47,172 nt of DNA from Phycisphaerales bacterium (GTDB lineage: Bacteria > Planctomycetota > Phycisphaerae > WQYP01): NCBI GenBank assembly GCA_027366125.1, contig DAHXKZ010000216.1, forward strand, positions 1 to 47,172. Direction: 5' to 3'. The first letter of the stretch is position 1, and each line of letters begins with the position of its first letter. Positions 9,849-47,172 of this stretch are shown one piece after another. Below the pieces are notes generated by a model that worked only from the letters and a program-made list of their open reading frames with translations, searched no databases and was not told the origin of the DNA. The translations under genes and the position numbers were made by a program.

Positions 9849-10136
9849 CAGGCACCTGTTTGCAAGAGAAAACTGATCAATTTACCAAGGTAGGAATTGT
9901 AGAGGAAAGGTTGGCGGCAAGCAAAACCGAACAGAATAAAGGAATACGGGCGGTCATACTGTCTCCCTCTGCTTAAGAAGGCGTGAAAATAAGACGACCT
10001 ATGCGAACCGCGATGCAGAATTTTCATGAAAACTTGGTCTTTTGACCATACTCGGTGGCCAGAATTGCGCGGCGGCATTAGTCTTTCATTATTGACGGCA
10101 TCGGTTATTGCGTTTCCGCTGTTTCGGGAGGTTTTC

Positions 10137-12878
10137 ATGCGATCGATCAAGGGTTCTGCGAAAAATCGGGTCATTGGCGCCCGCGTGCGGCGGTCTTTGA
10201 CCGCGGGCGTTCTGGCGGCGTGCGCCGTTACCGCCGCCGCCGCCAACCGCGCCGCGGCGGGGCCGGGCCACCGGGTCCTCCACAAAACTGCCACGGACCG
10301 GATTATTAATCCGGTTGGCGCAGTGGCCCTGACGCCGAATTTTGCGATTGATGTTGTGAGCGCCGGCGGGCGGGTGGTGGTGGAAGCGGCGGGCGCCGGA
10401 TTGCGTCAAACGCTCACGGTGATCAATGCACGGAATCTTGCGGAAGAAACCCAACTGGGCTTTTTAAAAAATAAGCCCAAACGTTGGAACATTCTGGCGG
10501 GCATTTCAAAGCAGAGTCTTTTTCAGGGGCTGGCGGCGGGGCGACGCGGGATGGTCTACGCCGCCGGCGGCATCTCCGACGATGTGGTGGCGCTGCGTCT
10601 GGCGCGCGGCGGCGGGCTAAAATTAATTCGCAAATATGCCTTGGCGTTTCAGAATTTCCCCAAAACCCAGTATCCGTACCAATATCAGGGCCAGCGTGGC
10701 GCGGCGGATTTTTATCCTGATTCTGTCGCGGTAGGACAACGCGGCGCCCACCTGTTTGCCACGGGCCTGTTAAGCAACAGCGTGGCGCGCATTAATCTCC
10801 ATACGGGCCATACGGTCTATTGCAACGCCGGCGCCATGCCTTTTCAGGTGGTTGCCGCCGACCATGGCCGGCGGCTGGTGGTTAGCGATTGGGGCGGCGA
10901 TGGCGTAACGGTCATTAACGCGCGCACGATGAAGTGGCTGCATTCCATTAGAATTGGCCCGCGCACCGGACCAAGGAATACCCTGCCCGGCGTGCAACCC
11001 ACCGCATTGGCGGCGGTTGGCAATTCAGCGCAGGTGTGGGTGGCCTGCGCCAATGCTGATGTTCTTTCCGAGATCAATTGCAAAACCATGACAGTTCTCC
11101 GCACGGCCACGGACCGACCATACCGCAATGCCCCGCCGGGAACATTTCCCGACGCGCTGGCGGTGGCCGATGGAAAAGTGTTTGCGGCGAATGCCGGCAA
11201 CGACGATGTAGCAGTGTTTAATGCCCGCACCGGCGACGCCCAGGGATTAATTCCCACCGGTTGGTATCCAACAAATTTATGCGTGTATAAACAATCGCTG
11301 TATATTGCGTCCGCGAAAGGGTTGGGATCAGCGGCGAACCCGCAACGGCAGTGGATTGGCAATTCCATGGCCGGTTGCGTGCAGCGCGTGCCGCTGCATC
11401 AGTTGTCGCGCCATCTGGCTGCCTGGACGCGCATCGCATTGGCGGATAACGGCTTTTCAAAGGCCCAGCGCACCACACTGGCGCGCGAAAATGCGGCCGC
11501 CATTAAAGTTGTGCGTCGCCATATAAAATATGTTGTCTTTATTTTGCGCGAAAATAAAACCTTTGACGAGGAACTTGGGGCGTACAAACCGGCGGGCAGC
11601 TGGGCGGACCCCAAGCTGGATTTATACAACCGCACCGAACTGCCAAATCTTTACGCCCTGGCCGATCGATTCGGATTGTGCGTCAACTTTTACATGGATG
11701 GCGAAGTCACGGCGCAGGGGCATCAATGGACAACCTCCGCTGAGGATTCCGATTACGTGCAGCGCACCTGGCCCATGTATTATTCCAGCCGCGGGATAGC
11801 GCCAAACCCTGGGTGGTCGCAAAATTTGGCGGGGCAGGCCTTTCAAACCGGCACTGGCTTTAACGGAGTGGACGACCCCTTTTCTGATTACACCAACCTG
11901 CGGCGCCTGGGCGATTGGTCCAACCCGTGGATATCCTATCCCGGCGGCATGTTTATTTTTAATGATCTGCTGGCCCGTCACCGATCATTCATGGATTTTG
12001 GAGAATTTGTATCGCGCAATCAGGCCGGGCAGATCAGCCCCGCCATGGCCCAACATCTGGGAAAATCTTTTCCGGGCTGGAACCGCTTTATTCTGGATAC
12101 CCAGCGCGCGGACGTTGTGCATCAGTTTATTAAAGCCCACCGGAATAATCTTCCAAAATTCATGTACATGTGGTTGCCGGATGACCATACGGCGGGGCGC
12201 ACGCCGGGCTACTACACGCCGCAGTATTATGTGGCAAACAATGACCTGGCCACGGGGCGAATTGTTGCCGAACTTAGCCGCACGCCAGAATGGAAGCACA
12301 TGGCGATTTTCATCACTGAAGATGACGCGCAATCCGGGGCGGATCATATTGACGCCCACCGTTCTTTCGCCGTTGTCGCAAGCCCGTGGGTGAAGCCCGG
12401 AAAACTTATTACGCAGCGGTATTCCCAGGTGAATTTGCTGCGCACCATAGAGGCCATCACGAATGTGCCGCCCATGTCGCAGTGGGACGCCAATGCGCGG
12501 GTGCTTTCGGGCATATGGACCACCAAGCCCAATTTCGCGCCGTATGATGTGCAGCCGATTCGCGTGCCCATGAAGGTGAATCCGGGCAAACTTTGGCCGG
12601 GAGAGCAGTTGCGCCGCCGCGCCGGAAAAACCGGCCACTGGCTTTCTCCGCATTGGCTGAAAATGCACCGTGTGGCGGCGCGAGCGAAAAAGCCGCGATT
12701 CACGCCCACGCAACTCATGAAAGTCCCCGGCCCAGAGCAGATGCGCCAGGAATGGATCGCGGTGAAAGGAAAACGGTCATATTTGCAGGTGATGGCCTAT
12801 CTGCGGCGGCTGGGAAAATTGCAGCACCAACCATTAACCCATTACATCGCCAGCGATAATGGGGATGTGAGCCGGTAA
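10137..12878 (+). CDS. secreted beta-propeller (YncE/lactonase-like) fused to a phosphoesterase/alkaline-phosphatase-superfamily domain, paralog 1
   Basis: I chose the ATG at 10137 because GGGAGG lies 7 nt upstream and a signal-like MRSIKGS...AACAVTAAAANRAAA follows. C-terminal half motifs are YVVFILRENKTFDE, WLPDDHTAG and ITEDDAQSGADHIDAHRS. Confidence 0.82.
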   Translation: MRSIKGSAKNRVIGARVRRSLTAGVLAACAVTAAAANRAAAGPGHRVLHKTATDRIINPVGAVALTPNFAIDVVSAGGRVVVEAAGAGLRQTLTVINARNLAEETQLGFLKNKPKRWNILAGISKQSLFQGLAAGRRGMVYAAGGISDDVVALRLARGGGLKLIRKYALAFQNFPKTQYPYQYQGQRGAADFYPDSVAVGQRGAHLFATGLLSNSVARINLHTGHTVYCNAGAMPFQVVAADHGRRLVVSDWGGDGVTVINARTMKWLHSIRIGPRTGPRNTLPGVQPTALAAVGNSAQVWVACANADVLSEINCKTMTVLRTATDRPYRNAPPGTFPDALAVADGKVFAANAGNDDVAVFNARTGDAQGLIPTGWYPTNLCVYKQSLYIASAKGLGSAANPQRQWIGNSMAGCVQRVPLHQLSRHLAAWTRIALADNGFSKAQRTTLARENAAAIKVVRRHIKYVVFILRENKTFDEELGAYKPAGSWADPKLDLYNRTELPNLYALADRFGLCVNFYMDGEVTAQGHQWTTSAEDSDYVQRTWPMYYSSRGIAPNPGWSQNLAGQAFQTGTGFNGVDDPFSDYTNLRRLGDWSNPWISYPGGMFIFNDLLARHRSFMDFGEFVSRNQAGQISPAMAQHLGKSFPGWNRFILDTQRADVVHQFIKAHRNNLPKFMYMWLPDDHTAGRTPGYYTPQYYVANNDLATGRIVAELSRTPEWKHMAIFITEDDAQSGADHIDAHRSFAVVASPWVKPGKLITQRYSQVNLLRTIEAITNVPPMSQWDANARVLSGIWTTKPNFAPYDVQPIRVPMKVNPGKLWPGEQLRRRAGKTGHWLSPHWLKMHRVAARAKKPRFTPTQLMKVPGPEQMRQEWIAVKGKRSYLQVMAYLRRLGKLQHQPLTHYIASDNGDVSR

Positions 12879-13135: not shown

Positions 13136-15967
13136 ATGCGCATGCCAAAGAATCGTCGAACTGCCGGTTTTTCTTCGGACCGCCATCCGCACGTATCGAC
13201 AATTGCGTCGCGACGCGTCGCGACGCAGACGCTGCTGGCCGCCGTAGCGTGCGCGATTCTCGCGGCATCGGCGCCGTGCGCGTTTGCGACCGGCGTTCAT
13301 AAAACGTCCACCGGCCGTGTGATCAGTCCTGTCGGCACAGTGGCCATGACGCCCAATTTTGCCGTGGGGGTTGCGGGCGCTGAGGGACATGTGGTGGTGG
13401 AAGCGGCCGGAGCGGCCTTTCGTCACACGCTGACCGTAATGGACGCAAACGATCTTCGTGAGCAGGGCCAACTGGGTTTTTTGAAGAGCAAGCCGTGGCA
13501 TGGCAGCGTGGCGGCGGGGCTTTCGAAGCAAAGCCTTTTTCAGGGGCTGGCATCCGGGCCCAACGGCAAGATCTATGCCGCCGGCGGCGTTTCCAATAAT
13601 GTGCTGGCGCTACAAATAGGACCGACGGGCTCGCTGAAACTGGTGCGCCAATATTCCCTGACATTTCAGCCGTTCGCCAAAACGCAGTATCCATACCAAT
13701 ACCAAGGGGAGCGGCCGGCGGAAAAGAAGCAAACAGGCCCGGCTTCGCCAGGGCAAATTATCCCCCATGCCAGTGACGGCGCCAAGGGCGGACCGGATTT
13801 TTACCCTGATTCCGTTGCGCTTGGCGCCCGCGGGCTGCACCTGTATGCCACGGGTTTGTTATGCAACAGTTTGGCTCGCATCAATCTCAAGACCGGTCGC
13901 ACACGGTACGCCAACGCCGGCGCCATGCCTTTCCAGGTGATTACGGCCGACCACGGCCGGCGGCTGGTGGTCAGCGATTGGGCCGCCAACGGCGTGACGA
14001 TTTTTGACGCCCAAAACATGAAGCGTCTTGGTTTTATTAACATTGCCGCGCCGACGGGGCCAAAAAACCGCCTGCCGGGCGTGCATCCCACGGCGCTGGC
14101 GGCGGTGGGCGCATCGGCGCGCGTTTGGATTGCCTGTGCCAACACCGACACGCTGACGGAAGTTGATTCCAAAAGCTTGACGATATGCAAGGCCACCATC
14201 GACCAACCGTATCGCGGGGCTCCCCCCGGATCGTTTCCGGACGCGCTGGCGGTGGCGGACGGCAAAATATTTGCGGGCAACGCCGGCAATGACGATGTCG
14301 CGGTATTTGACGCGACCACGGGCCGGCCCGAAGGTTTAATTCCCACCGGCTGGTATCCCACCAGCTTATGCGCATATCGCGGGGCGATTTACGCGGTGTC
14401 AGCTAAGGGCCTGGGATCAACACCGGATAAAAAGCATCAGTGGATCGGCGCCTCCATGCCGGGATGCATGCAGCGAATTGCCCTGCGCCAGCTTGCGCAA
14501 AGGCTGCCGGCGTGGACGCACACCGCTCTGGAAAATGATGGCTTCACGCCGGCGCAACGAAGCAAGCTGGCCGGCGAAAACGCGGCCGCAACGCGATTTA
14601 TTCGCCAGCATATCCATTATGCGGTGTTTATACTACGGGAAAACAAGACGTTTGATGAAAATTTTGGGGCCTATAAACCAGCAGGGAGCTGGGCGGACAC
14701 CAGGCTGGATTTATACAACCGGACCGAACTGCCAAACCTGTACGCCCTGGCCGGTCGGTTCGGATTGTGCGTAAACTTCTACATGGATGGAGAAGTCACG
14801 GCACAGGGACATCAATGGACAACGGCCGCCGAAGACTCGGATTACGTGCAGCGCACCTGGCCCATGTATTATTCCAACCGCGGAATCGGGCCAAATCCAG
14901 GCTGGACCCAAACGCTGGACGACCGGACCTTCCACGCGAAAACCGGCTTTCGCGGCACCGACAATCCCTTTTCCGATTATTCCAATCTCAAACGGCTGGG
15001 GCACTGGTCCAATCCGTGGGTTTCCTATCCCGGTGGAATGTTTATTTTTAATGACCTGCTGGAAAATCACGTTTCCTTCATGGACTTTGGAGAATTTGTT
15101 TCACGCGATCAGGCCGGCCAGATCAGCCCGTCCATGGCGAAACACTTGGACCAACACTTTGCCGGCTGGAATCGCTTTGTCCTGGACACCGACCGGGCGA
15201 ACGTGGTACGGCGGTTTATCAAGGCTCACCCGCGCAATCTGCCGCATTTTATGTACATCTGGCTGCCGGATGACCACACCGCCGGCCGCACGCCGGGCTA
15301 TTACACGCCGCAATATTATGTCGCAAACAACGACCTGGCCACGGGGCGGATTGTGGCCGAACTCAGCCGCACGCCGCAGTGGAAGCACATGGCAATTTTT
15401 ATTACCGAAGACGATGCCCAATCCGGGGCGGATCATATTGACGCACACCGGTCATTTGCGGTGGTCGTGAGCCCTTGGATCAAGCCGGGAAAGCTGATCA
15501 AGCGCCGTTATTCCCAGGTGAGCCTGATGCGCACGATGGAAGCCATCACCAACGTGCCGCCGATGTCGCAATGGGATGCCAATGCCCGCGTGTTAAGCGG
15601 AATCTGGACGCGCCATCCCAACTTTGCGCCGTACAACGTGCAGCCCATCCGGGTGCCCGTGAAAGTGAATCCGGGCAAGCTTTGGCCTGGAGAAAAACTT
15701 CGACGCGAGGCTGGAAAGACCGGGCGCTGGCTGTCGCCGCAATGGCTGCAACGGCATGCCGGCGCGGTAAACGCCATTAAGAAATTAGACTTCACGCCCA
15801 CGCAACTCATGAAAGTGCCCGGCCCGGAACAGATGCGCCAAGAGTGGATGGCAGTAAAGGGAAAGGCGGCATACTTGCGCCTGATGGCCTATCTGCGGCG
15901 GCTGGCAAAATCGCAGCACCAGCCATTAACCCATTACATCGCCAGTGATAATGGGGATGGTGGTTAA
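13136..15967 (+). CDS. secreted beta-propeller/phosphoesterase fusion, paralog 2
   Basis: GGAGG at 13125-13129 precedes the ATG. The protein is collinear with 10137..12878 over its full length and carries the same motifs (YAVFILRENKTFDE, ITEDDAQSGADHIDAHRS). The C-terminal tail is nearly identical (QHQPLTHYIASDNGD). Confidence 0.82.
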   Translation: MRMPKNRRTAGFSSDRHPHVSTIASRRVATQTLLAAVACAILAASAPCAFATGVHKTSTGRVISPVGTVAMTPNFAVGVAGAEGHVVVEAAGAAFRHTLTVMDANDLREQGQLGFLKSKPWHGSVAAGLSKQSLFQGLASGPNGKIYAAGGVSNNVLALQIGPTGSLKLVRQYSLTFQPFAKTQYPYQYQGERPAEKKQTGPASPGQIIPHASDGAKGGPDFYPDSVALGARGLHLYATGLLCNSLARINLKTGRTRYANAGAMPFQVITADHGRRLVVSDWAANGVTIFDAQNMKRLGFINIAAPTGPKNRLPGVHPTALAAVGASARVWIACANTDTLTEVDSKSLTICKATIDQPYRGAPPGSFPDALAVADGKIFAGNAGNDDVAVFDATTGRPEGLIPTGWYPTSLCAYRGAIYAVSAKGLGSTPDKKHQWIGASMPGCMQRIALRQLAQRLPAWTHTALENDGFTPAQRSKLAGENAAATRFIRQHIHYAVFILRENKTFDENFGAYKPAGSWADTRLDLYNRTELPNLYALAGRFGLCVNFYMDGEVTAQGHQWTTAAEDSDYVQRTWPMYYSNRGIGPNPGWTQTLDDRTFHAKTGFRGTDNPFSDYSNLKRLGHWSNPWVSYPGGMFIFNDLLENHVSFMDFGEFVSRDQAGQISPSMAKHLDQHFAGWNRFVLDTDRANVVRRFIKAHPRNLPHFMYIWLPDDHTAGRTPGYYTPQYYVANNDLATGRIVAELSRTPQWKHMAIFITEDDAQSGADHIDAHRSFAVVVSPWIKPGKLIKRRYSQVSLMRTMEAITNVPPMSQWDANARVLSGIWTRHPNFAPYNVQPIRVPVKVNPGKLWPGEKLRREAGKTGRWLSPQWLQRHAGAVNAIKKLDFTPTQLMKVPGPEQMRQEWMAVKGKAAYLRLMAYLRRLAKSQHQPLTHYIASDNGDGG

Positions 15968-31088: not shown

Positions 31089-32165
31089 TTATGGGCACAT
31101 GGGCGAACTGGCGATTACTTCATTTCCAAATGGCCTCTCCACGCTGACATTGGCCGCGCTTCCGTGCGAGACCGTTTTGAATCCCACCGGCAAAAACTGT
31201 TCAATCACGGCAATGTTGGTCGTGGCGTGCAGCGACAGCGGCAGCGTGCGGAATGTTCCGCCGGCCAGGGCCAATGGTATTAACAATTGGTCGGCAAGAT
31301 GGACTCCCACGGGGGCGTCGCTTTTCAAATACCGTCGCACATCTTGACTGACATGCTCCGCCACGCCTTCCGCGGTGACATTTTTGGCGCCAAAGCCGGT
31401 GATCACTTCCGTTACATTGGCATAGGCCAGTTGCGTCTGCAGTACATTTCCCGGACCGTGGGCCTCGGGCAATTCTTCCACATGAAATGCGTCTTGCGGC
31501 CAGGAAAGCCGTGACGCCAGCGTATGCAGTTCGCGTTGGGCGATGCTAACGGGCAATCCGGCGATAAATGCCGTGGCCTGGTAGCCGCGCAACTCTCCGC
31601 GCGTCAGAAGATTCAGCGGTTGCCAGACTTTCACGGGCTGTATGTCCACGGAAACATGGCCGCCGCCGGCCGGATAAAAGCCGCAGCGATGCAGCTTTGC
31701 CGTAACCGATGCGCCCATTCCCGCGAGCACCGGCAGGAATGCGTCCTGGATAAAATGATAGGTTGGCGCCATGGGGTTGTGCGTGCCGCCTTCCAGTTGC
31801 AGCGAGCTGGCGCCGTCGCCGGTCAGCAGCGCCGGCAGCACCGTTTGCAGCACCAACAGGGCGGACCCCGCGCTGCCAACTGAAAATTCATAATTTCCGG
31901 CCTTTATTGGCCCGGGCCGAAAGGCCAATTCGCCTGAACCTAAGTTCGCGCCGGAACTCGCGGCGCCACAGACTTCTGTGGCGGCTCGCACGGCGGTTAA
32001 ATGCTGGCGCAGCAGGCCCGGTTTGCGGCGGCCGGCGCGGATTTGCGTCATGTGAAATCCGCGACCGGTCAGCATGGAAAGGGCCAGGGCGGTGCGCAGA
32101 ATCTGGCCGCCGCCCTCGCCGGCCGTGCCATCCAGTAATACCAATGGGTCCGTGGGTGCAGGCAT
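31089..32165 (-). CDS. rtcA: RNA 3'-terminal phosphate cyclase
   Basis: 358-aa ORF. The N-terminus LDGTAGEGGGQILRTALALSMLTG, followed by RKPGLLRQHLTAV, is typical of RtcA. The start abuts the rtcB stop (TAAATG). Confidence 0.9.
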   Translation of the reverse strand: MPAPTDPLVLLDGTAGEGGGQILRTALALSMLTGRGFHMTQIRAGRRKPGLLRQHLTAVRAATEVCGAASSGANLGSGELAFRPGPIKAGNYEFSVGSAGSALLVLQTVLPALLTGDGASSLQLEGGTHNPMAPTYHFIQDAFLPVLAGMGASVTAKLHRCGFYPAGGGHVSVDIQPVKVWQPLNLLTRGELRGYQATAFIAGLPVSIAQRELHTLASRLSWPQDAFHVEELPEAHGPGNVLQTQLAYANVTEVITGFGAKNVTAEGVAEHVSQDVRRYLKSDAPVGVHLADQLLIPLALAGGTFRTLPLSLHATTNIAVIEQFLPVGFKTVSHGSAANVSVERPFGNEVIASSPMCP

Positions 32166-33698
32166 TTAGTCATCCGCCTTGTCTGAATCTTTAATGACAA
32201 ACCGCGCGCGCAGCCGCGCCACTTCCGTGGCCAGGTCGGCCGCCTCCACGCTGTGCAGCACCGCGTCGAAGTTTTTGTATGCGGCGGGGGCCTCATCCAT
32301 GGGATAACGCCGGCAGTTTGTTAAAATGTCCGCGGCGGCGAAACTTTCATCAATGGCCTGTTGGTTAAATTCCCGAATGGCGGCCTTGCGGCCCTTCACC
32401 CGGCCGGCGCCGTGGTTCACGCTAAACGCGCTCTTTTGGGCCCCTGGCTGCGCCACCATTACGCTGCTGCCCGCCTGCGGATTTCCTGGCAACAAAATAG
32501 GATGGCCGGTTTCATAAAACGGCGTGTCTTTCAGCGCATGATGCCGCGCGGGAAACGCCCGCGTTGCCCCTTTGCGATGTACCCACGCCAGACTGCTTCC
32601 GCCAGAGCCATGGCCTGAACTGCGCGTTGTGGTTTCCAACCGGGCGATGTTGTGGCTGATAAAATAAACCAGCTTTCCGATGGCGCCGGGAATTACTTCC
32701 TGAAACGCCTCCAGCACCAGCGCGTTAATAAGCATGTGGTTCACTGTAGCAAAGTTGGCGCCCAGAGCCATGTCGTCTAAGTAAGCATCCGCCTCCGTCG
32801 TTCCCAGTGGGGCGTACACCAGATGTTTATCATTGGCCGGCAACGGAATGCTCCATTCTAAAAAGTGCTTTTGCAACTGCCGAAACTGATGATCCGCAAG
32901 TTGATAACCAAACCCGCGCGAGCCGCAATGGGACAAAAACGCAATCCGGCCATCCAGCAGGCCGAAGGCGTCGGCCACCGCTTCCTGTCCCTTGCGCACC
33001 TGCACCACTTCACATTCGCCAAAGTGGTTGCCGCCGCCGTAAGAACCCAGTTGCGAGATTTTCTCCGCAAAATTCTTCAGCACGCCGGCGTCAATGAGTT
33101 TCTGCACGCGCGTTTGCAGGGTATCGGCGGCGCCGTCGTGGCCCACATGGTGGGAATCTTCGCAACGCTGCGCCCATTCCGGCGGAATGCCAATACTTTC
33201 ACAAACGCCCGTCGAGGCGCCTTCAACGGCCACGCGCCGGCCGAGTTCCGGCCCAACATGGCGCGACTTTTTCACGCTGCGCTGGCCGTGGCCGGCGCCG
33301 GTGGGCACGCGCTGCAAAATGGCGTTAATAATGGCCCGGCGCGTGCCGGCATCCTCCATTTCACTGGCCGGAATGTCCAACTGCAGCAGGCTCATGGAAC
33401 ATTTAATATCAACGCCTACCGGTCCAGGGTAAATGTGCGTGGGCGATACCAGCACACAGCCAATGGGGGCGCCGTAACCGCAGTGGGCATCGGGATTCAG
33501 CACCACTTCGGTAACGCCCGGCGCATCGCGTGAATTGAGCGCCTGTTGAACGCACAGGTCGTCAAACGTGGCGCGCACCTCCGGCGTGCCGATGACAGTA
33601 ATTGGGCTGAGGTTGGAATGCCGGGCCGGCAATATGGCCGTCGCCTCGCCGGTGCTGATAAATCCATATTTGTTTTCAGGGGCTGATTCAGAGTTCAT
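32166..33698 (-). CDS. rtcB: RNA-splicing ligase RtcB
   Basis: I chose the start at 33698 (MNSESAPENKYGF; AAGGAAGA upstream). Motifs are NPDAHCGYGAPIG, GGGNHFGE, HCGSRGFG and HRKGATRA. The 107-codon upstream extension in the ORF track runs through the ncRNA array and is rejected. Confidence 0.9.
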   Translation of the reverse strand: MNSESAPENKYGFISTGEATAILPARHSNLSPITVIGTPEVRATFDDLCVQQALNSRDAPGVTEVVLNPDAHCGYGAPIGCVLVSPTHIYPGPVGVDIKCSMSLLQLDIPASEMEDAGTRRAIINAILQRVPTGAGHGQRSVKKSRHVGPELGRRVAVEGASTGVCESIGIPPEWAQRCEDSHHVGHDGAADTLQTRVQKLIDAGVLKNFAEKISQLGSYGGGNHFGECEVVQVRKGQEAVADAFGLLDGRIAFLSHCGSRGFGYQLADHQFRQLQKHFLEWSIPLPANDKHLVYAPLGTTEADAYLDDMALGANFATVNHMLINALVLEAFQEVIPGAIGKLVYFISHNIARLETTTRSSGHGSGGSSLAWVHRKGATRAFPARHHALKDTPFYETGHPILLPGNPQAGSSVMVAQPGAQKSAFSVNHGAGRVKGRKAAIREFNQQAIDESFAAADILTNCRRYPMDEAPAAYKNFDAVLHSVEAADLATEVARLRARFVIKDSDKADD

Positions 33699-33757
33699 GT
33701 TGGTCTTCCTTATTAATGGCCGGCCATACGACCGGCATTCTGATGTTGTGCAATACC

Positions 33758-33892
33758 GGCAGCGACAAAAAATTGACGAAACAGGCAACGTGCTCTGCCA
33801 CTGAGCTACCGGTACGGCGGTTATGCCGCGCCCGGGCGGGAGTCGAACCCGCGACCTCGTTCTTACATGTAGTTCCGTCGGCATTCGCTGCC
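33758..33892 (-). ncRNA. Y-RNA-like ncRNA with a tRNA-like module (unit 3, proximal to rtcB)
   Basis: On the minus strand the 5' end GGCAGCGAATGCCGACGGAACTACATG pairs with the 3' end TTGTCGCTGCC. The T-arm is GCGGGTTCGACTCCCGC (33836-33852). A closed acceptor-like hairpin follows, then the D-arm GGTAGCTCAGTGGCAGAGCA (33791-33810). Confidence 0.65.
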
Positions 33893-33933
33893 GGTGGATT
33901 CTCCTGGCGTTATGCCATTTTCCGTGACCGCCA

Positions 33934-34044
33934 CGCCGGCGACAAATGGTGCGGAAACATTCGGAACCGCCGGCCTTGCGGCGTTGGCGGTCCCGGCGGG
34001 AGTCGAACTCGCGACGCATGTAGTTCCAGCGGCATTCGCCGGCG
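33934..34044 (-). ncRNA. Y-RNA-like ncRNA, shorter variant (unit 2)
   Basis: It has the same 5' motif (CGCCGGCGAATGCCGCTGGAACTACATG) pairing with the 3' end TTGTCGCCGGCG. A T-arm-like GCGAGTTCGACTCCCGC lies at 33996-34012. There is no D-arm. Confidence 0.5.
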
Positions 34045-34063
34045 TGTCGGCTTGGCTTAACAA

Positions 34064-34208
34064 GGGCGGCGACAAAAATTGGCGAAACATAGTACGGGCT
34101 CTATCCAGTTGAGCTACCGTCCGGCATGTTGCCATGCGAGACAGGCGGGAATCGAACCCGCAACCTCGTCCTCGGTAAGGATGTAGTTCCGCCGGCATTC
34201 GCCGCCCC
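34064..34208 (-). ncRNA. Y-RNA-like ncRNA with a tRNA-like module (unit 1, proximal to rsr)
   Basis: The 5' end GGGCGGCGAATGCCGGCGGAACTACATCC pairs with the 3' end TTGTCGCCGCCC. The T-arm is GCGGGTTCGATTCCCGC (34145-34161). The D-arm is GTAGCTCAACTGGATAGAGC (34098-34117). Confidence 0.65.
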
Positions 34209-34222
34209 GGATTCTTTACCAG

Positions 34223-35779
34223 TCAAATCCGCTGCTGTTCAATGATGCCAACCCAGTGATCGACTGACAACGCGCCCTTTTGAAACTGCGCCAGGACATC
34301 AAACACCGCGTCGCTAAAGCCGCCGATGTTCATAATATCCGGGCGCTCGGGCGCCTGCGTGGTGGCGTTGGGAACCAGGTCGATACACGCCATTCGCGCG
34401 TTCGGGCAGCGGGCCGCAACCGCGTTCCATTGCCGCAGCGTTTCCGTGCCCGGCAACAATGGATTGGTATCAATCCAGGACTGGTTGTCCGAGATAAATA
34501 TGACTAGGTCAACGTGCGCCTGGTGCGCGTTGAGCCACTGCAAGCCGGCTGAACAGTTCGTCCCGCCGCCGCCCACCGCCGCCAGCTTCTGCGCGTTGGT
34601 GAAAACGCTGTCGCGCGGATTAATGGCAAGTGGTACCACGTCAACATCAAAGGGCATGACGACGGCCTGCCGATTCTTGCGAACAATTGCCGCGGCTACC
34701 AGCGCTGCCACGTCCACACAGCGCACCGCCGATGTTGCCCCGCGCACGGTTCCGGTAATCGCCGACCGCATGGAACCGGAAACATCCGGGAACACGGCCA
34801 CATCGCCGGCAATTTCCGGTACATTGTCCACGGCAATTTCCACGGCGTCCTGCAACGCTTCGCACAGTTGCGCGGGTATTGCACGGTCCGCATGCGTGTA
34901 TGCCGCCAAAAGCTGATACGGCAGCGCCCGGGCCTTACGAATTAATTCCGCGTTACGCAACCGGTCAGCGATCACCGGTACAAGCGAAGCATCATTGAAC
35001 ACAGCGTGCCGGGCGAATGTGTTCAGGTTCATCCGCGTCATCTGCCACGGCGCATTGCGGGCAATTTCCGACCACTGGGCCGTGTTAAGCGGCAGGGCGG
35101 TGAGCATCTGAAACGGCACATCCGGCGGCGCCTGCGCCGCGCCGGCCTTAAACTCCTCAAACTGCCGCACCAGCAAAGGCAGCGCCTGTGCGTCATACGG
35201 TTGCCCAATAAGATACCCGAATAACGCCTGCCGGCTGGCGGTCCGCGGCTTCGGGTGGACCATCTTAATAATATCGGCCAGCGATGGATCGGCGCCAACA
35301 CAGCCGCGGAAAAGCTGCTCATCACTGTGGCGTTCCAAATAGTTGCGCACCATGCGCCGCGGCAGCGTGCCCAACGACTTGCGCCCAACCGCGCCGGAGC
35401 GCATGATCTGCACAAAGTTGCGCAGCATCCTGGGCGTGTCAATTACGCGGTCAAAAATTTCCGCCATTAGGCCCGGCGACCGCACCGAAAGCAACGCGCA
35501 CAACAACGCCGGGGCATCCTTCATGTGTCCGCTGGTTCGACCATACAAGGCTGCCTTGGCAATAAATTCCGGTTCAACCTGCGCGGCCACCTTCAGCGCC
35601 ATATCCAGTTGCTGGTGTTCCGTGGCGTAAAACGTGCGGGTCAGGCAGCCGGTGGCCGCAAACTGTGCCACGGCATGCCGGGGGCCAAAGCCGTAGGCTG
35701 GGGCGCGTTCGCTGTTGATGGCGTCCGTCGGCGGTACGTAGGCCCCACGCACAGAATGGAATAATGTTCGGCTGGCCAT
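34223..35779 (-). CDS. rsr: Ro60-related (TROVE domain plus vWA-like) protein Rsr
   Basis: I chose the start at 35779 (MASRTLFHSVRG; AAGGTG upstream). The TROVE-like N-terminal two-thirds include NSERAPAYGFGPRHAVAQF and FYATEHQQL. The C-terminus is vWA-like with a MIDAS motif (VFPDVSGSM). Confidence 0.82.
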   Translation of the reverse strand: MASRTLFHSVRGAYVPPTDAINSERAPAYGFGPRHAVAQFAATGCLTRTFYATEHQQLDMALKVAAQVEPEFIAKAALYGRTSGHMKDAPALLCALLSVRSPGLMAEIFDRVIDTPRMLRNFVQIMRSGAVGRKSLGTLPRRMVRNYLERHSDEQLFRGCVGADPSLADIIKMVHPKPRTASRQALFGYLIGQPYDAQALPLLVRQFEEFKAGAAQAPPDVPFQMLTALPLNTAQWSEIARNAPWQMTRMNLNTFARHAVFNDASLVPVIADRLRNAELIRKARALPYQLLAAYTHADRAIPAQLCEALQDAVEIAVDNVPEIAGDVAVFPDVSGSMRSAITGTVRGATSAVRCVDVAALVAAAIVRKNRQAVVMPFDVDVVPLAINPRDSVFTNAQKLAAVGGGGTNCSAGLQWLNAHQAHVDLVIFISDNQSWIDTNPLLPGTETLRQWNAVAARCPNARMACIDLVPNATTQAPERPDIMNIGGFSDAVFDVLAQFQKGALSVDHWVGIIEQQRI

Positions 35780-35885
35780 GATGCGACACCTTATTAAGTA
35801 GGCATTCCGGGCCGCGTTTGGCTTACCGAAAAGCCGCTTCGCGTGCGGGACATATAACAACGCTCGTACCAGGCTTGGCCCCGAC

Positions 35886-36009: not shown

Positions 36010-37629
36010 ATGGCAACAACAAAGAAAGACCAATCCCACAAGCCGCTGGTGGTCATTGGCCTGCTTGGAACCACGCTTGACGGCGGCGGCGGCGTGCAAC
36101 GCTGGGAACGCTGGCGGCCAACGGTAGACCTGTGCCGCCATGATGATCTGGTCATTGACCGCTTGGAACTGCTGCACCAGGAAAAGTTTAACAAGCTCGG
36201 CGACACTGTAACCGCGGACATTGCCCGGTGTTCGCCGGAAACGCAGGTCCGCCGGCACATGGTGGAATTTGCCAACCCATGGGATTTTCAGGAAGTGTAC
36301 GGCACGCTGCTGGATTTCGCCCGCGCGTATCGTTTCGATCCGGATAAAGAGGATTATCTGGTGCATATAACCACCGGCACCCATGTGAGCCAGATCTGCC
36401 TTTTCCTGTTAACCGAGGCCCGCTGGCTGCCCGCACGGCTGCTGCAAACCGCGCCGCCCGGCGGCCATCGCCCATCCACGCCCGGCACGCACGCCATCAT
36501 TGACCTGGACCTTTCACAATACGACCGCATCGCATCGCGCTTTATGCAGCAGACCACGGAATCGGTTTCGTTCTTAAAGTCCGGCATTGATACAAAAAGC
36601 GCGGCGTTTAACGCGCTTATTGGGCGAATTGAACGCGTGGCCGGCGCTTCCAAGGCCCCGATTTTGCTCATTGGCCCCACCGGCGCCGGCAAGAGCCAAC
36701 TGGCCCGGAGAATTTATGAATTAAAAAAAACGCGGCGACAGGTGCTGGGCGCGTTTGTGGAGGTCAACTGCGCCACCTTGCGCGGCGATGCCGCCATGTC
36801 CACGCTTTTTGGCCATGTGAAGGGGGCGTTCACCGGCGCGGTGTCCGCCCGGCCGGGGCTGTTGCGCGCCGCGGACAAAGGAATGCTGTTTTTGGATGAA
36901 ATTGGTGAACTGGGGGCCGATGAACAGGCCATGCTGCTGCGCGCCGTGGAAGAGAAACGCTTTCTGCCCGTCGGGGCCGATGGCGAAGCGGCCTCGGACT
37001 TTCAACTGCTGGCGGGGACAAATTGCGATTTACAACGCGCCGTGATCGACGGCCGCTTCCGCGAAGATTTATTCGCGCGCATCAACTTGTGGACATTCAA
37101 TCTGCCGGGCCTGAAAGACCGCCGGGAGGATTTGGAACCCAACATTGAATATGAACTGGCGCAATTTGCCCGCAACCACGGCACAAAAGTGACATTTAAT
37201 AAGGAAGCCCGGGCGAAATTTCTGGCGTTTGCCCAGTCGCCCGAAGCTCTGTGGCGGCGCAACTTCCGCGACTTAAACGCCAGCATTTCCCGCATGGCAA
37301 CATTGGCCGTGGCCGCCGGCGGGGCACGCATCGGCTTGGAAGATGTGAATGCGGAAATCGCGGCATTGGCGGCGTCCTGGCAGGATATTTCCGGGGCCCC
37401 GCAGGGCGAGCTGCCGGAGGCCGTTGCGGCTAAGGCCGGTGAACTTGACGTGTTTGACCGGGTACAACTGGCGGAAGTGGTGCGCGTGTGCCAGGCTGCG
37501 TCAACAATTTCCGATGCGGGCCGAACGCTGTTTGCGGCCAGCCGGAAAACGAAAAAAGCCCCCAATGACGCCGATCGTCTGCGCAAATATCTGGCCCGCT
37601 TCAGCCTGACATTTGATGACCTGCGGTGA
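36010..37629 (+). CDS. rtcR: sigma-54-dependent transcriptional activator RtcR (CARF-like N-terminal domain plus AAA+ domain)
   Basis: I chose the start at 36010 ([21 protein letters not shown]). The AAA+ core carries [15 protein letters not shown], the GAFTGA loop ([10 protein letters not shown]) and LFLDEIGEL. The gene is divergent from rsr, as in known rtc loci. Confidence 0.88.
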
Positions 37630-46509: not shown

Positions 46510-47172
46510 ATGCCTTTTGCGCCGCGCAACACGGGTATTTTCGGGCGGCAAGACCGCAGCAGCGGCTCCAATTTATTAAACCGCGGATTACGCTGATCAC
46601 GCGGATAGGGGGCGACGGAAATCCGCGGCAGTCCACCGTTCCCGTCGTCATCATCCATTCCGTCGTATCCGCGTCCATCCGCGTCATCCGCGGTTCACGT
46701 CATCGTGTTCTGGCGCTTTATCGGGCGCACGCCACACGAATATTGCTAAGGGCAAGACGCGCGGCAGCGGCTCCGATTCATTAAACCGCGGATTACGCTG
46801 ATCACGCGGATGGGGGGCGACGGAAATCCGCGGCAGTCCACCGTTCCCGTCGCCATCATCCATTCCCTCGTATCCGCGTTCATCCGCGCCATCCGCGGTT
46901 CACATCATCCTGTTCTGGCGCTTTATCGGGCGCCGTGCGACACGAATATTGCTAAGGGCAAGTCCGCGGCAGCGGCTCCAATTCATTCAACCGCGGATTA
47001 CACTGATTACGCGGATGGGGACGACGGAAATCCGCGGCAGTCCACCGTTCCCGTCGTCATCATCCATTCCGTCGTATCCGCGTTCATCCGCGCCATCCGC
47101 GGTTCACATCATCCTGTTCTGGCGCTTTATCGGGCGCCGTGCGACACGAATATTGCTAAGGGCAAGTCCGCG
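46510..47172. repeat. noncoding tandem repeat array, period ~205 bp, with three full copies plus a partial copy, truncated by the window end
   Basis: The landmark AGCGGCTCC occurs at 46561, 46766 and 46971. ATCCGCGGCAGTCCACCGTTCCCGTCG occurs at 46621, 46826 and 47027. The copies differ by scattered substitutions and small indels. No conserved ORF is present. Confidence 0.85.

Follow-up and report, generated by a model that had tools for sequence, protein, structure and literature searches.

A probable tandem array of three YrlA-family Y RNAs in the RNA-repair operon of a Phycisphaerales bacterium

What, if anything, is encoded between rsr, the gene for a Ro60 ortholog, and rtcB, the gene for an RNA ligase, on a contig of a Phycisphaerales bacterium (assembly GCA_027366125.1, contig DAHXKZ010000216.1, positions 1 to 47,172; this whole stretch of 47,172 nt is called the window)? 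Public gene calls, which we took from identical contigs (assemblies GCA_027426395.1 and GCA_021828935.1), give an Rsr of 518 aa and an RtcB of 510 aa that starts at ATG 33698, and leave the 524-nt gap between them without a gene. We propose, with a probability of about 0.9, that the gap holds three tandem bacterial Y RNAs of the YrlA family, small tRNA mimics that act as partners of the Ro60 protein, lying within an RtcR-controlled RNA-repair operon of the order rsr, Y RNAs, rtcB, rtcA. The value of the locus would be mainly one of annotation: about 450 nt that gene callers leave empty, and that are in part mislabelled as tRNA-Gly, would be three Y RNA genes. Knowledge of how Y RNAs work is unchanged by the array.

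The array consists of three head-to-tail units on the minus strand, at 33756-34208, separated by spacers of 16 nt and 38 nt. It begins 14 nt past the rsr stop codon, and thus within the distance from rsr (<4 kb) that Chen et al. (2014, PMC4201824) took as a criterion for such RNAs. A sequence-only reading had placed three tandem Y-RNA-like genes here, and all the features that it described were found in the sequence. Close to its 5' end, every unit carries the motif GAATGCCG-NN-GGAACTACAT (33867-33886, 34018-34037 and 34181-34200), which has exactly these three matches in 47 kb and no others even at 2 mismatches, with 0 expected from 100 shuffles. The sequence TGTTTC...TTGTCGC near the 3' end is also common to all three. 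The closing helices, one per unit, are different in sequence yet complementary, exactly as had been quoted (GGGCGGCGA/TCGCCGCCC, CGCCGGCGA/TCGCCGGCG and GGCAGCGA/TCGCTGCC). The second helix is GGCGGAAC/GUUUCGCC in unit 1 and GACGGAAC/GUUUCGUC in unit 3, with A-U in place of G-C; in unit 2 it has one U.C mismatch. This two-part stem, which closes the ends of each RNA, carries the motifs (G/A)GCGAAUG and CUAC: GGCGAAUG is present in units 1 and 2 and AGCGAAUG in unit 3, where the first G is replaced by A and the pair is kept as A-U, and CUAC is present in all three. The GNCGAAN0-1G near the 5' end and the conserved YUAY that Chen et al. (2014) describe were likewise found in the array units.

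A tRNA-like body is inserted in the stem of units 1 and 3. It comprises, in order, the variable-loop sequence AGGUY, a T-arm (GCGGG-UUCGAnU-CCCGC), a closed hairpin corresponding to a 7-bp-type acceptor stem, UA (U8-A9) and a D-arm (GCUC-A..GG..A-GAGC) with G18 and G19. The Levitt pair 15:48, which covaries, is A15:U48 in unit 1 and G15:C48 in unit 3. The D-arm pattern that had been given for both units, CAnnGGnAGAGC, is exact in unit 3 and does not hold for unit 1, whose D-loop is longer (CAACUGGAUAGAGC). Unit 2, which had been described as shorter and without a D-arm, indeed lacks it, both in the sequence and in an Rfam alignment that skips this region, and so it does not have the full tRNA-like domain (T-arm, closed acceptor-like stem-loop, D-arm) of its neighbours. 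It keeps a T-arm (GCGAG...CCCGC, in which one position is an A.C mismatch) that is stacked on a long closed hairpin (10+3 bp, GCAA loop); together they mimic the top half of a tRNA. Folding gave z = -4.1 for unit 1 and z = -3.7 for unit 2, the latter being stabler than all 200 shuffles. The V segment can form a 4-bp hairpin in unit 1, which is impossible in unit 3; when the V segments of 45 homologs were folded in isolation, a convincing hairpin appeared in 6 only.

Comparison with curated models assigned the units to a family. The Rfam YrlA model (RF02553, gathering score 69 bits) matches all three units, with alignments that run from model position 1 to 114, and it scores unit 1 above the gathering score at 74.3 bits (E 2e-15; local E 3e-17). 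None of the other Rfam families fits the units. The array RNAs are probably further members of YrlA, an already known family, and the earlier assignment of units 1 and 3 to YrlA-type Y RNAs, as a tRNA body opened at the anticodon stem, is borne out by the Rfam match and by the flanking genes for Rsr, RtcB, RtcA and RtcR.

To place the array among related loci, we fetched 80 loci that encode an Rsr 54-62% identical to that of the window. They come from metagenome-assembled genomes (MAGs) of Planctomycetota, Verrucomicrobiota and Acidobacteriota, so that the closest Rsr proteins, at <=62% identity, are spread over three phyla. All 80 were searched with a covariance model, R1, built from units 1 and 3; a first MAFFT alignment of the three units (A1), in which the 3' half of unit 2 was misaligned, did not enter the modelling. 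With R1, 208 further copies were located in 69 of the 80 loci; every one lies on the rsr strand, and most follow this gene directly. Unit 2 scored 54 bits with the same model. R1 matches near E = 0.01 are weak, and about five partial-model matches upstream of rsr are probably genuine tRNAs. These more than 200 RNAs are a ready comparative set for the question of why Ro60 proteins retain several Y RNAs of different kinds.

Base pairing is strongly conserved among these homologs. In the alignment of the best 150 matches (A3), 96.2% of cells are in standard pairs, whereas sliding the 3' partners by 1-3 columns leaves 36-53%. Two-sided changes occur in 30 of 32 pairs, and the covariation score is 0.49, versus at most 0.08 for the slid controls and 0.14 for shuffles. 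Independently of the model, MAFFT and RNAalifold applied to 46 full-length RNAs from 45 loci recovered both stems, the T-arm, the 7-bp acceptor-like stem and the D-stem, with compensatory changes in 22 of 31 pairs. The proposal that the differing helices of the three units reflect covariation in an RNA stem is thus upheld on both kinds of alignment. The Levitt pair, which is not part of the model, is G:C in 67 homologs, A:U in 43 and another combination in 3. Levitt-pair covariation in YrlA was already reported (PMC4201824, section 6; Wang et al. 2018, bioRxiv 10.1101/312249), and therefore it confirms YrlA membership and adds nothing new. Strain-level variation gave no information, as L081-L083, three public contigs that carry the RtcB of the window, do not differ from it anywhere in the array (100% identity).

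The genes around the array were identified by their Pfam domains (Table 1). A divergent rtcR is followed by rsr, the Y RNAs, rtcB and rtcA on one strand, and this operon layout is also the dominant one in the related loci, which read rtcR(-) rsr(+) Y(2-5) rtcB (rtcA). The start of rtcR at ATG 36010 was read from the sequence. For rsr, the mechanical open reading frame (ORF) reaches TTG 35860; homolog matches begin at about residues 22-28 of this long ORF, in line with the 518 aa of the public calls. No sigma-70 promoters or terminators above chance were found within the array, which is consistent with a polycistronic precursor. A GC hairpin, GCCGG-UCGUAUGG-CCGGC (33722-33739, minus strand), lies 24 nt upstream of the rtcB ATG and has no U-tract; processing or stabilisation of the 5' end of the rtcBA mRNA is a possible role for it.

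Table 1 Features of the Y RNA array and its operon, in window coordinates; unit boundaries were set by model.
Feature	Coordinates	Strand	Description	Evidence
Unit 1	34063-34208	-	Full-length YrlA-type Y RNA, 146 nt; closing stem with GGCGAAUG, second stem, CUAC, small V hairpin	Rfam RF02553
Unit 1 T-arm	34145-34161	-		
Unit 1 closed acceptor-like hairpin	34117-34144	-	GCAA loop; followed by UA	
Unit 1 D-arm	34098-34114	-		
Unit 2	33933-34046	-	T-arm-only Y RNA, about 113 nt; both stems, GGCGAAUG and CUAC; without D-arm and V hairpin	Rfam YrlA sub-threshold, R1
Unit 2 T-arm	33996-34012	-		
Unit 2 closed hairpin	~33962-33995	-		
Unit 3	33756-33894	-	Full-length YrlA-type Y RNA, about 138 nt; closing stem with AGCGAAUG, second stem, CUAC, closed acceptor-like hairpin, UA; V segment 5 nt shorter, no hairpin	Rfam YrlA
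Unit 3 T-arm	33836-33852	-		
Unit 3 D-arm	33792-33806	-		
rsr	34223-35779	-	Ro60 ortholog, 518 aa, ATG 35779	Pfam vWA_Ro60 4.7e-18, TROVE 7e-8
rtcB	32166-33698	-	RNA ligase, 510 aa, ATG 33698, AAGGAAGA before it	Pfam RtcB 7e-98, residues 52-503
rtcA	31089-32165	-	RNA 3'-phosphate cyclase	Pfam RTC 1.5e-75, RTC_insert
rtcR	36010-37629	+	Sigma-54-dependent activator, RtcR (CARF-like) N-terminal domain	Pfam RtcR 3.8e-82, Sigma54_activat 6e-47
Candidate sigma-54 -24/-12 element	35856-35871	-	TGGTAC-N5-TTGTT, ~77 nt upstream of rsr ATG	Pattern, 2 mismatches

Is an array of three such RNAs exceptional? The sequence-only reading had considered three copies with two architectures unusual, and the survey contradicts this. 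Among the 69 loci with R1 matches, 5 have one, 19 have two, 21 have three, 18 have four and 6 have five, so that 64 of the 69 have 2-5 matches, and the commonest count is three. For 33 loci, rsr and the downstream rtcB were both captured; 31 of these have 2-5 RNAs between the two genes, most often four (15 loci), with three in 7 loci, and the other two have one and none. The RNAs fall into three recurring size classes: full-length RNAs of ~130-150 nt with T-arm and D-arm, T-arm-only RNAs of ~100-113 nt, and stem-only RNAs of ~66-75 nt. Arrays that mix full-length and T-arm-only RNAs are common, and the order of the window (full-length, T-arm-only, full-length) occurs in four other loci. Multi-copy Y RNA arrays of mixed architecture are the norm in the surveyed group of soil and aquatic bacteria, which is large and has received little study. 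Published data point the same way: the 355 YrlAs of Chen et al. (2014, PMC4201824) outnumber the 276 genomes in which they were found, and every species studied has at least two Y RNAs, YrlB of Mycobacterium smegmatis being a second, shorter one with a possible T-arm (PMC4201824).

Two further observations concern these size classes. The stem-only RNAs were seen in 16 related loci, right after the rsr stop codon, and none is present in the window; they have the CGAAUG and CUACA motifs without a tRNA-like insert (for example L008 4631-4699, L009 4617-4684, L039 4631-4696 and L074 4731-4799). In 20 of the related loci (L002...L079), the Rfam YrlA model at its gathering score labels 25 of 83 R1 copies (~30%), and some top-scoring full-length copies, such as L008 5000-5135, are among those that it misses.

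Several known systems resemble this locus. YrlA is known from Salmonella Typhimurium, from the 355 YrlAs of PMC4201824 and from a crystal structure (PDB 6CU1; bioRxiv 10.1101/312249). Criteria for YrlA and bacterial Y RNAs in general also include stability as a small RNA that Rsr binds in vivo and modifications of the tRNA type (TruB pseudouridine 55, DusA dihydrouridine). The window shares with it the position next to rsr, the order of the body (variable loop, T-arm, closed acceptor stem, UA, D-arm), the covarying Levitt pair and the full-length Rfam matches of units 1 and 3. Unlike Salmonella, which has one YrlA and one YrlB, the window has three tandem copies; furthermore, its unit 3 has A for the first G of the stem motif, its longer acceptor-like hairpins measure 11-13 bp and contain an internal mismatch, and its host lineage is distant, with the nearest Rsr proteins being those of the MAGs surveyed here. 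Unit 2 can be likened by its architecture to YrlB-type RNAs, including M. smegmatis YrlB: it is a shorter Y RNA beside YrlA that has the Rsr-binding stem and a T-arm and not the full tRNA-like domain. It differs from them in being built on the YrlA scaffold, with the stem motifs of its neighbours, and in keeping the long closed acceptor-like hairpin, whereas YrlB of Salmonella consists of a simple hairpin whose loop is rich in pyrimidines.

At the level of the operon, the closest parallel is Salmonella rsr-yrlBA-rtcBA (PMC7790460), with the same divergent rtcR and the same gene order on one strand. The window RtcR also has RtcR/CARF-like and sigma-54 interaction domains. The differences are the number of Y RNAs (three versus two) and the candidate promoter, which matches the sigma-54 pattern weakly; induction by tRNA halves would apply here by analogy. 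Deinococcus radiodurans Yrn1 and Yrn2 and metazoan Y RNAs are similar in outline, in that one module, the stem, binds Ro60 and another is directed towards an effector. In Deinococcus the effector is PNPase in the RYPER complex, and several Y RNAs come from one precursor. However, the stem motif there is GGUCCGA-like and Yrn1 is without a full D-arm, and Y RNAs of the Deinococcus/metazoan type form a lineage separate from YrlA (Chen et al. 2014, PMC4201824).

Salmonella Typhimurium rsr-yrlBA-rtcBA and Deinococcus (PMC4201824, PMC7790460, bioRxiv 10.1101/312249) serve as models for the following proposed mechanism. RtcR would sense 5' tRNA halves ending in 2',3'-cyclic phosphate and would activate a sigma-54 promoter upstream of rsr. 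The array would be co-transcribed with rsr and rtcBA, and the transcript would be processed into individual RNAs of ~110-145 nt. Each RNA would bind Rsr through the stem with the GNCGAA motif, into which its 5' and 3' ends close, the module that Rsr (Ro60) is thought to recognise in the family members studied (PMC4201824, PMC7790460, bioRxiv 10.1101/312249). The tRNA-like module would be the effector-facing end and may tether Rsr to PNPase or another partner; alternatively, it may serve as a nuclease-resistant decoy for tRNA-directed nucleases. It is conceivable that several architectures give Rsr several partners.

A number of points weigh against the interpretation of the array as three YrlA-family Y RNAs of such an operon. 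Two of the units fall below the Rfam gathering score: unit 3 scores 66.6 bits, 2.4 below it (local E 5e-15, model 1-114), and unit 2 scores 46.5 bits (local E 3e-9). The candidate sigma-54 element stands where such a promoter (-24 GG / -12 GC) would be expected, but it is weak, with GT for GC at -12, and its pattern was found 30 times in the window versus 38 expected. Pairing in the A3 alignment is inflated by the fit of this alignment to the proposed structure, a bias that the slid controls and the MAFFT-based folds reduce. Expression of the three RNAs and their binding to Rsr we infer by analogy, and the role of the tRNA-like module is not settled even in Salmonella (PMC7790460, discussion). 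Finally, the two mismatches of unit 2, A.C in the T stem and U.C in the second helix, fall at positions that are almost always paired in its T-arm-only homologs, and unit 2 could be decaying.

The nature of unit 2 therefore deserves closer consideration. Its architecture recurs in 38 other related loci. MAFFT and RNAalifold applied to the 39 T-arm-only RNAs including unit 2 recovered the closing stem, the second stem and the T-arm, with compensatory changes in 12 of 20 pairs. The second stem reads AGUACA...CUCUC in 32 of 41 T-arm-only RNAs and ACUACA...GUUUC in 67 of 110 full-length YrlAs; unit 2 is the only one of the 41 with the full-length signature ACUACA/GUUUC. The simplest reading of these sequences is that unit 2 may be a local YrlA duplicate minus its D-arm. 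As an alternative origin, its stem module may have been homogenised with those of its neighbours by gene conversion.

The T-arm-only RNAs may be a distinct, conserved and uncatalogued Y RNA subclass that mimics the acceptor/T minihelix of tRNA, and unit 2 may be a re-invention of it; we regard this as possible and somewhat doubtful. The RNAs in question measure ~100-113 nt, occur in about 40 of the 80 related loci and lie under the Rfam YrlA threshold. If they do form such a subclass, Rsr could gain through them a partner other than that of full YrlAs in arrays with 3-5 members from Planctomycetota, Verrucomicrobiota and Acidobacteriota; one example would be an enzyme that recognises no more than the top half of a tRNA (TruB, CCA-adding enzyme or RNase P). 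In that case unit 2 would be an independent and recent re-invention of the architecture from a local YrlA duplicate. The class may already be described; we found nothing relevant in later literature on T-arm-only Y RNAs, in a search that lay outside the supplementary tables of Chen et al. (2014) and the main reviews. What may be modestly new is a widespread, conserved T-arm-only subclass, the low recovery of array members at the Rfam threshold and the hybrid character of unit 2.

A rival account, which we think unlikely, accepts units 1 and 3 as functional YrlAs and takes unit 2 for a decaying duplicate, now drifting after an internal deletion removed its D-arm. The full-length signature that sets unit 2 apart from all other T-arm-only RNAs would fit such an origin, as would its two mismatches, each unique or nearly so among the 39 aligned T-arm-only RNAs, and its scores, the lowest of the three on both Rfam and R1. 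However, unit 2 has an intact 10-bp closing stem, GGCGAAUG and CUAC, a UUCGACU T-loop and a 10+3 bp hairpin with a GNRA loop; its fold is stabler than that of every shuffled sequence; and the same overall architecture is kept in the 38 other loci, so that such an architecture does occur in conserved copies.

Could the array instead act mainly in cis, as a structured leader or processing platform for rtcB-rtcA that sets mRNA stability or the rsr:rtcB expression ratio, without any trans-acting Rsr-bound RNAs? The array does lie inside the operon, flanked by coding genes, promoters or terminators within it do not exceed chance, and the small GCCGG...CCGGC hairpin is found between unit 3 and the rtcB ribosome-binding site. 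However, several related loci have the RNAs upstream of rsr, or have no rtcB found downstream; the counterparts in Salmonella and M. smegmatis undergo processing, and Rsr binds them (PMC4201824); and a leader role does not explain the conserved tRNA tertiary pairs. A mainly cis-acting array is quite improbable.

Still less credible is a reading of the array as a tandem row of tRNA genes or pseudogenes. In favour of it, ARAGORN places a tRNA-Gly(acc) at 34136-34208 (minus strand), the T-arm and D-arm sequences are tRNA-like, and there are partial matches on the T-arms to the Rfam tmRNA and to tRNA-like models. However, the T-arm precedes the D-arm in the units, a closed hairpin separates the two, and an anticodon arm is absent; the ~84 nt from the unit 1 D-arm to the unit 2 T-arm are filled by conserved stem motifs; and no match to the Rfam tRNA model in the window reaches the gathering score. 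The segment called by ARAGORN is the 5' half of unit 1, namely the Rsr-binding stem and T-arm; the call takes the Rsr-binding stem as the acceptor stem and is spurious. A tRNA cloverleaf (acceptor, D, anticodon, T) is ruled out by the order found here (T, closed acceptor, D, no anticodon arm). False tRNA annotation of this type is likely to recur at YrlA loci.

Protein-coding readings, either as an N-terminal extension of RtcB (a mechanical ORF of 617 aa that runs from rtcB through units 3 and 2 to 34019) or as a 111-aa ORF (33863-34198) across units 1 and 2, merit virtually no credence and were rejected: both ORFs exist mechanically, and the 111-aa ORF has two weak tblastn matches (E about 1e-6), but both matches fall on YrlA RNA genes and so reflect nucleotide conservation, neither ORF matches Pfam, the extension has no tblastn match in the 80 related loci, public calls start RtcB at 33698, and the substitutions are base-pair covariation and not codon-like. 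It had been predicted that automatic annotation would read through the array and either miss the RNAs or mis-extend rtcB. An ORF caller does read through and the RNAs are left uncalled, but rtcB keeps its proper start in the public calls; the actual annotation hazard is the false tRNA-Gly on unit 1.

Among the related loci, genuine and apparent tRNAs were seen near several Y RNA arrays. An apparent genuine tRNA (50.8 bits) lies inside the array of L033 (4686-4757) and recalls the Yrn2-tRNA-Yrn1 precursor of Deinococcus. A 123-nt 'tRNA' match in L062 (5043-5165, 41 bits) is a chimeric false positive that straddles two successive YrlAs, with the D-arm from the first and the T-arm from the second. 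In an Acidobacteriota MAG (JBKPMX010000072.1; L027 417-2537), about 14 tandem tRNA genes identified by Rfam stand directly upstream of rsr and the Y RNA array, and this proximity of a tRNA gene cluster to Y RNAs that mimic tRNA may be of interest. A group II intron domain match (47.6 bits, gathering score 40) was also found upstream of rtcR/rsr in a Verrucomicrobiia MAG (L009 1108-1210).

The rest of the window is ordinary chromosomal DNA, with genes for pdxA, riboflavin synthase, a GH92 enzyme, a class II aldolase, RecQ and an ABC transporter. From 46555 to the window end at 47172 there is a ~205-bp tandem repeat in 3 copies, upstream of a solute-binding/permease fusion gene. Its 174-nt cores are 94% and 74% identical to the first copy, its 26-nt junction reads GC[CG]ACACGAATATTGCTAAGGGCAAG, and it had no match in Rfam at E <= 0.1. 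Small repeated minus-strand ORFs (MDDDDGNGGLPRISVAP..., M.RM.AD..EWMM.TGTVDCRGFPSPPIRVISVIRG) overlap the repeat. Elsewhere, two adjacent paralogous ORFs of ~945 aa each (10026-12878 and 13136-15967, plus strand) combine a long N-terminal part without a Pfam match with a C-terminal Phosphoesterase-family (PF04185) domain.

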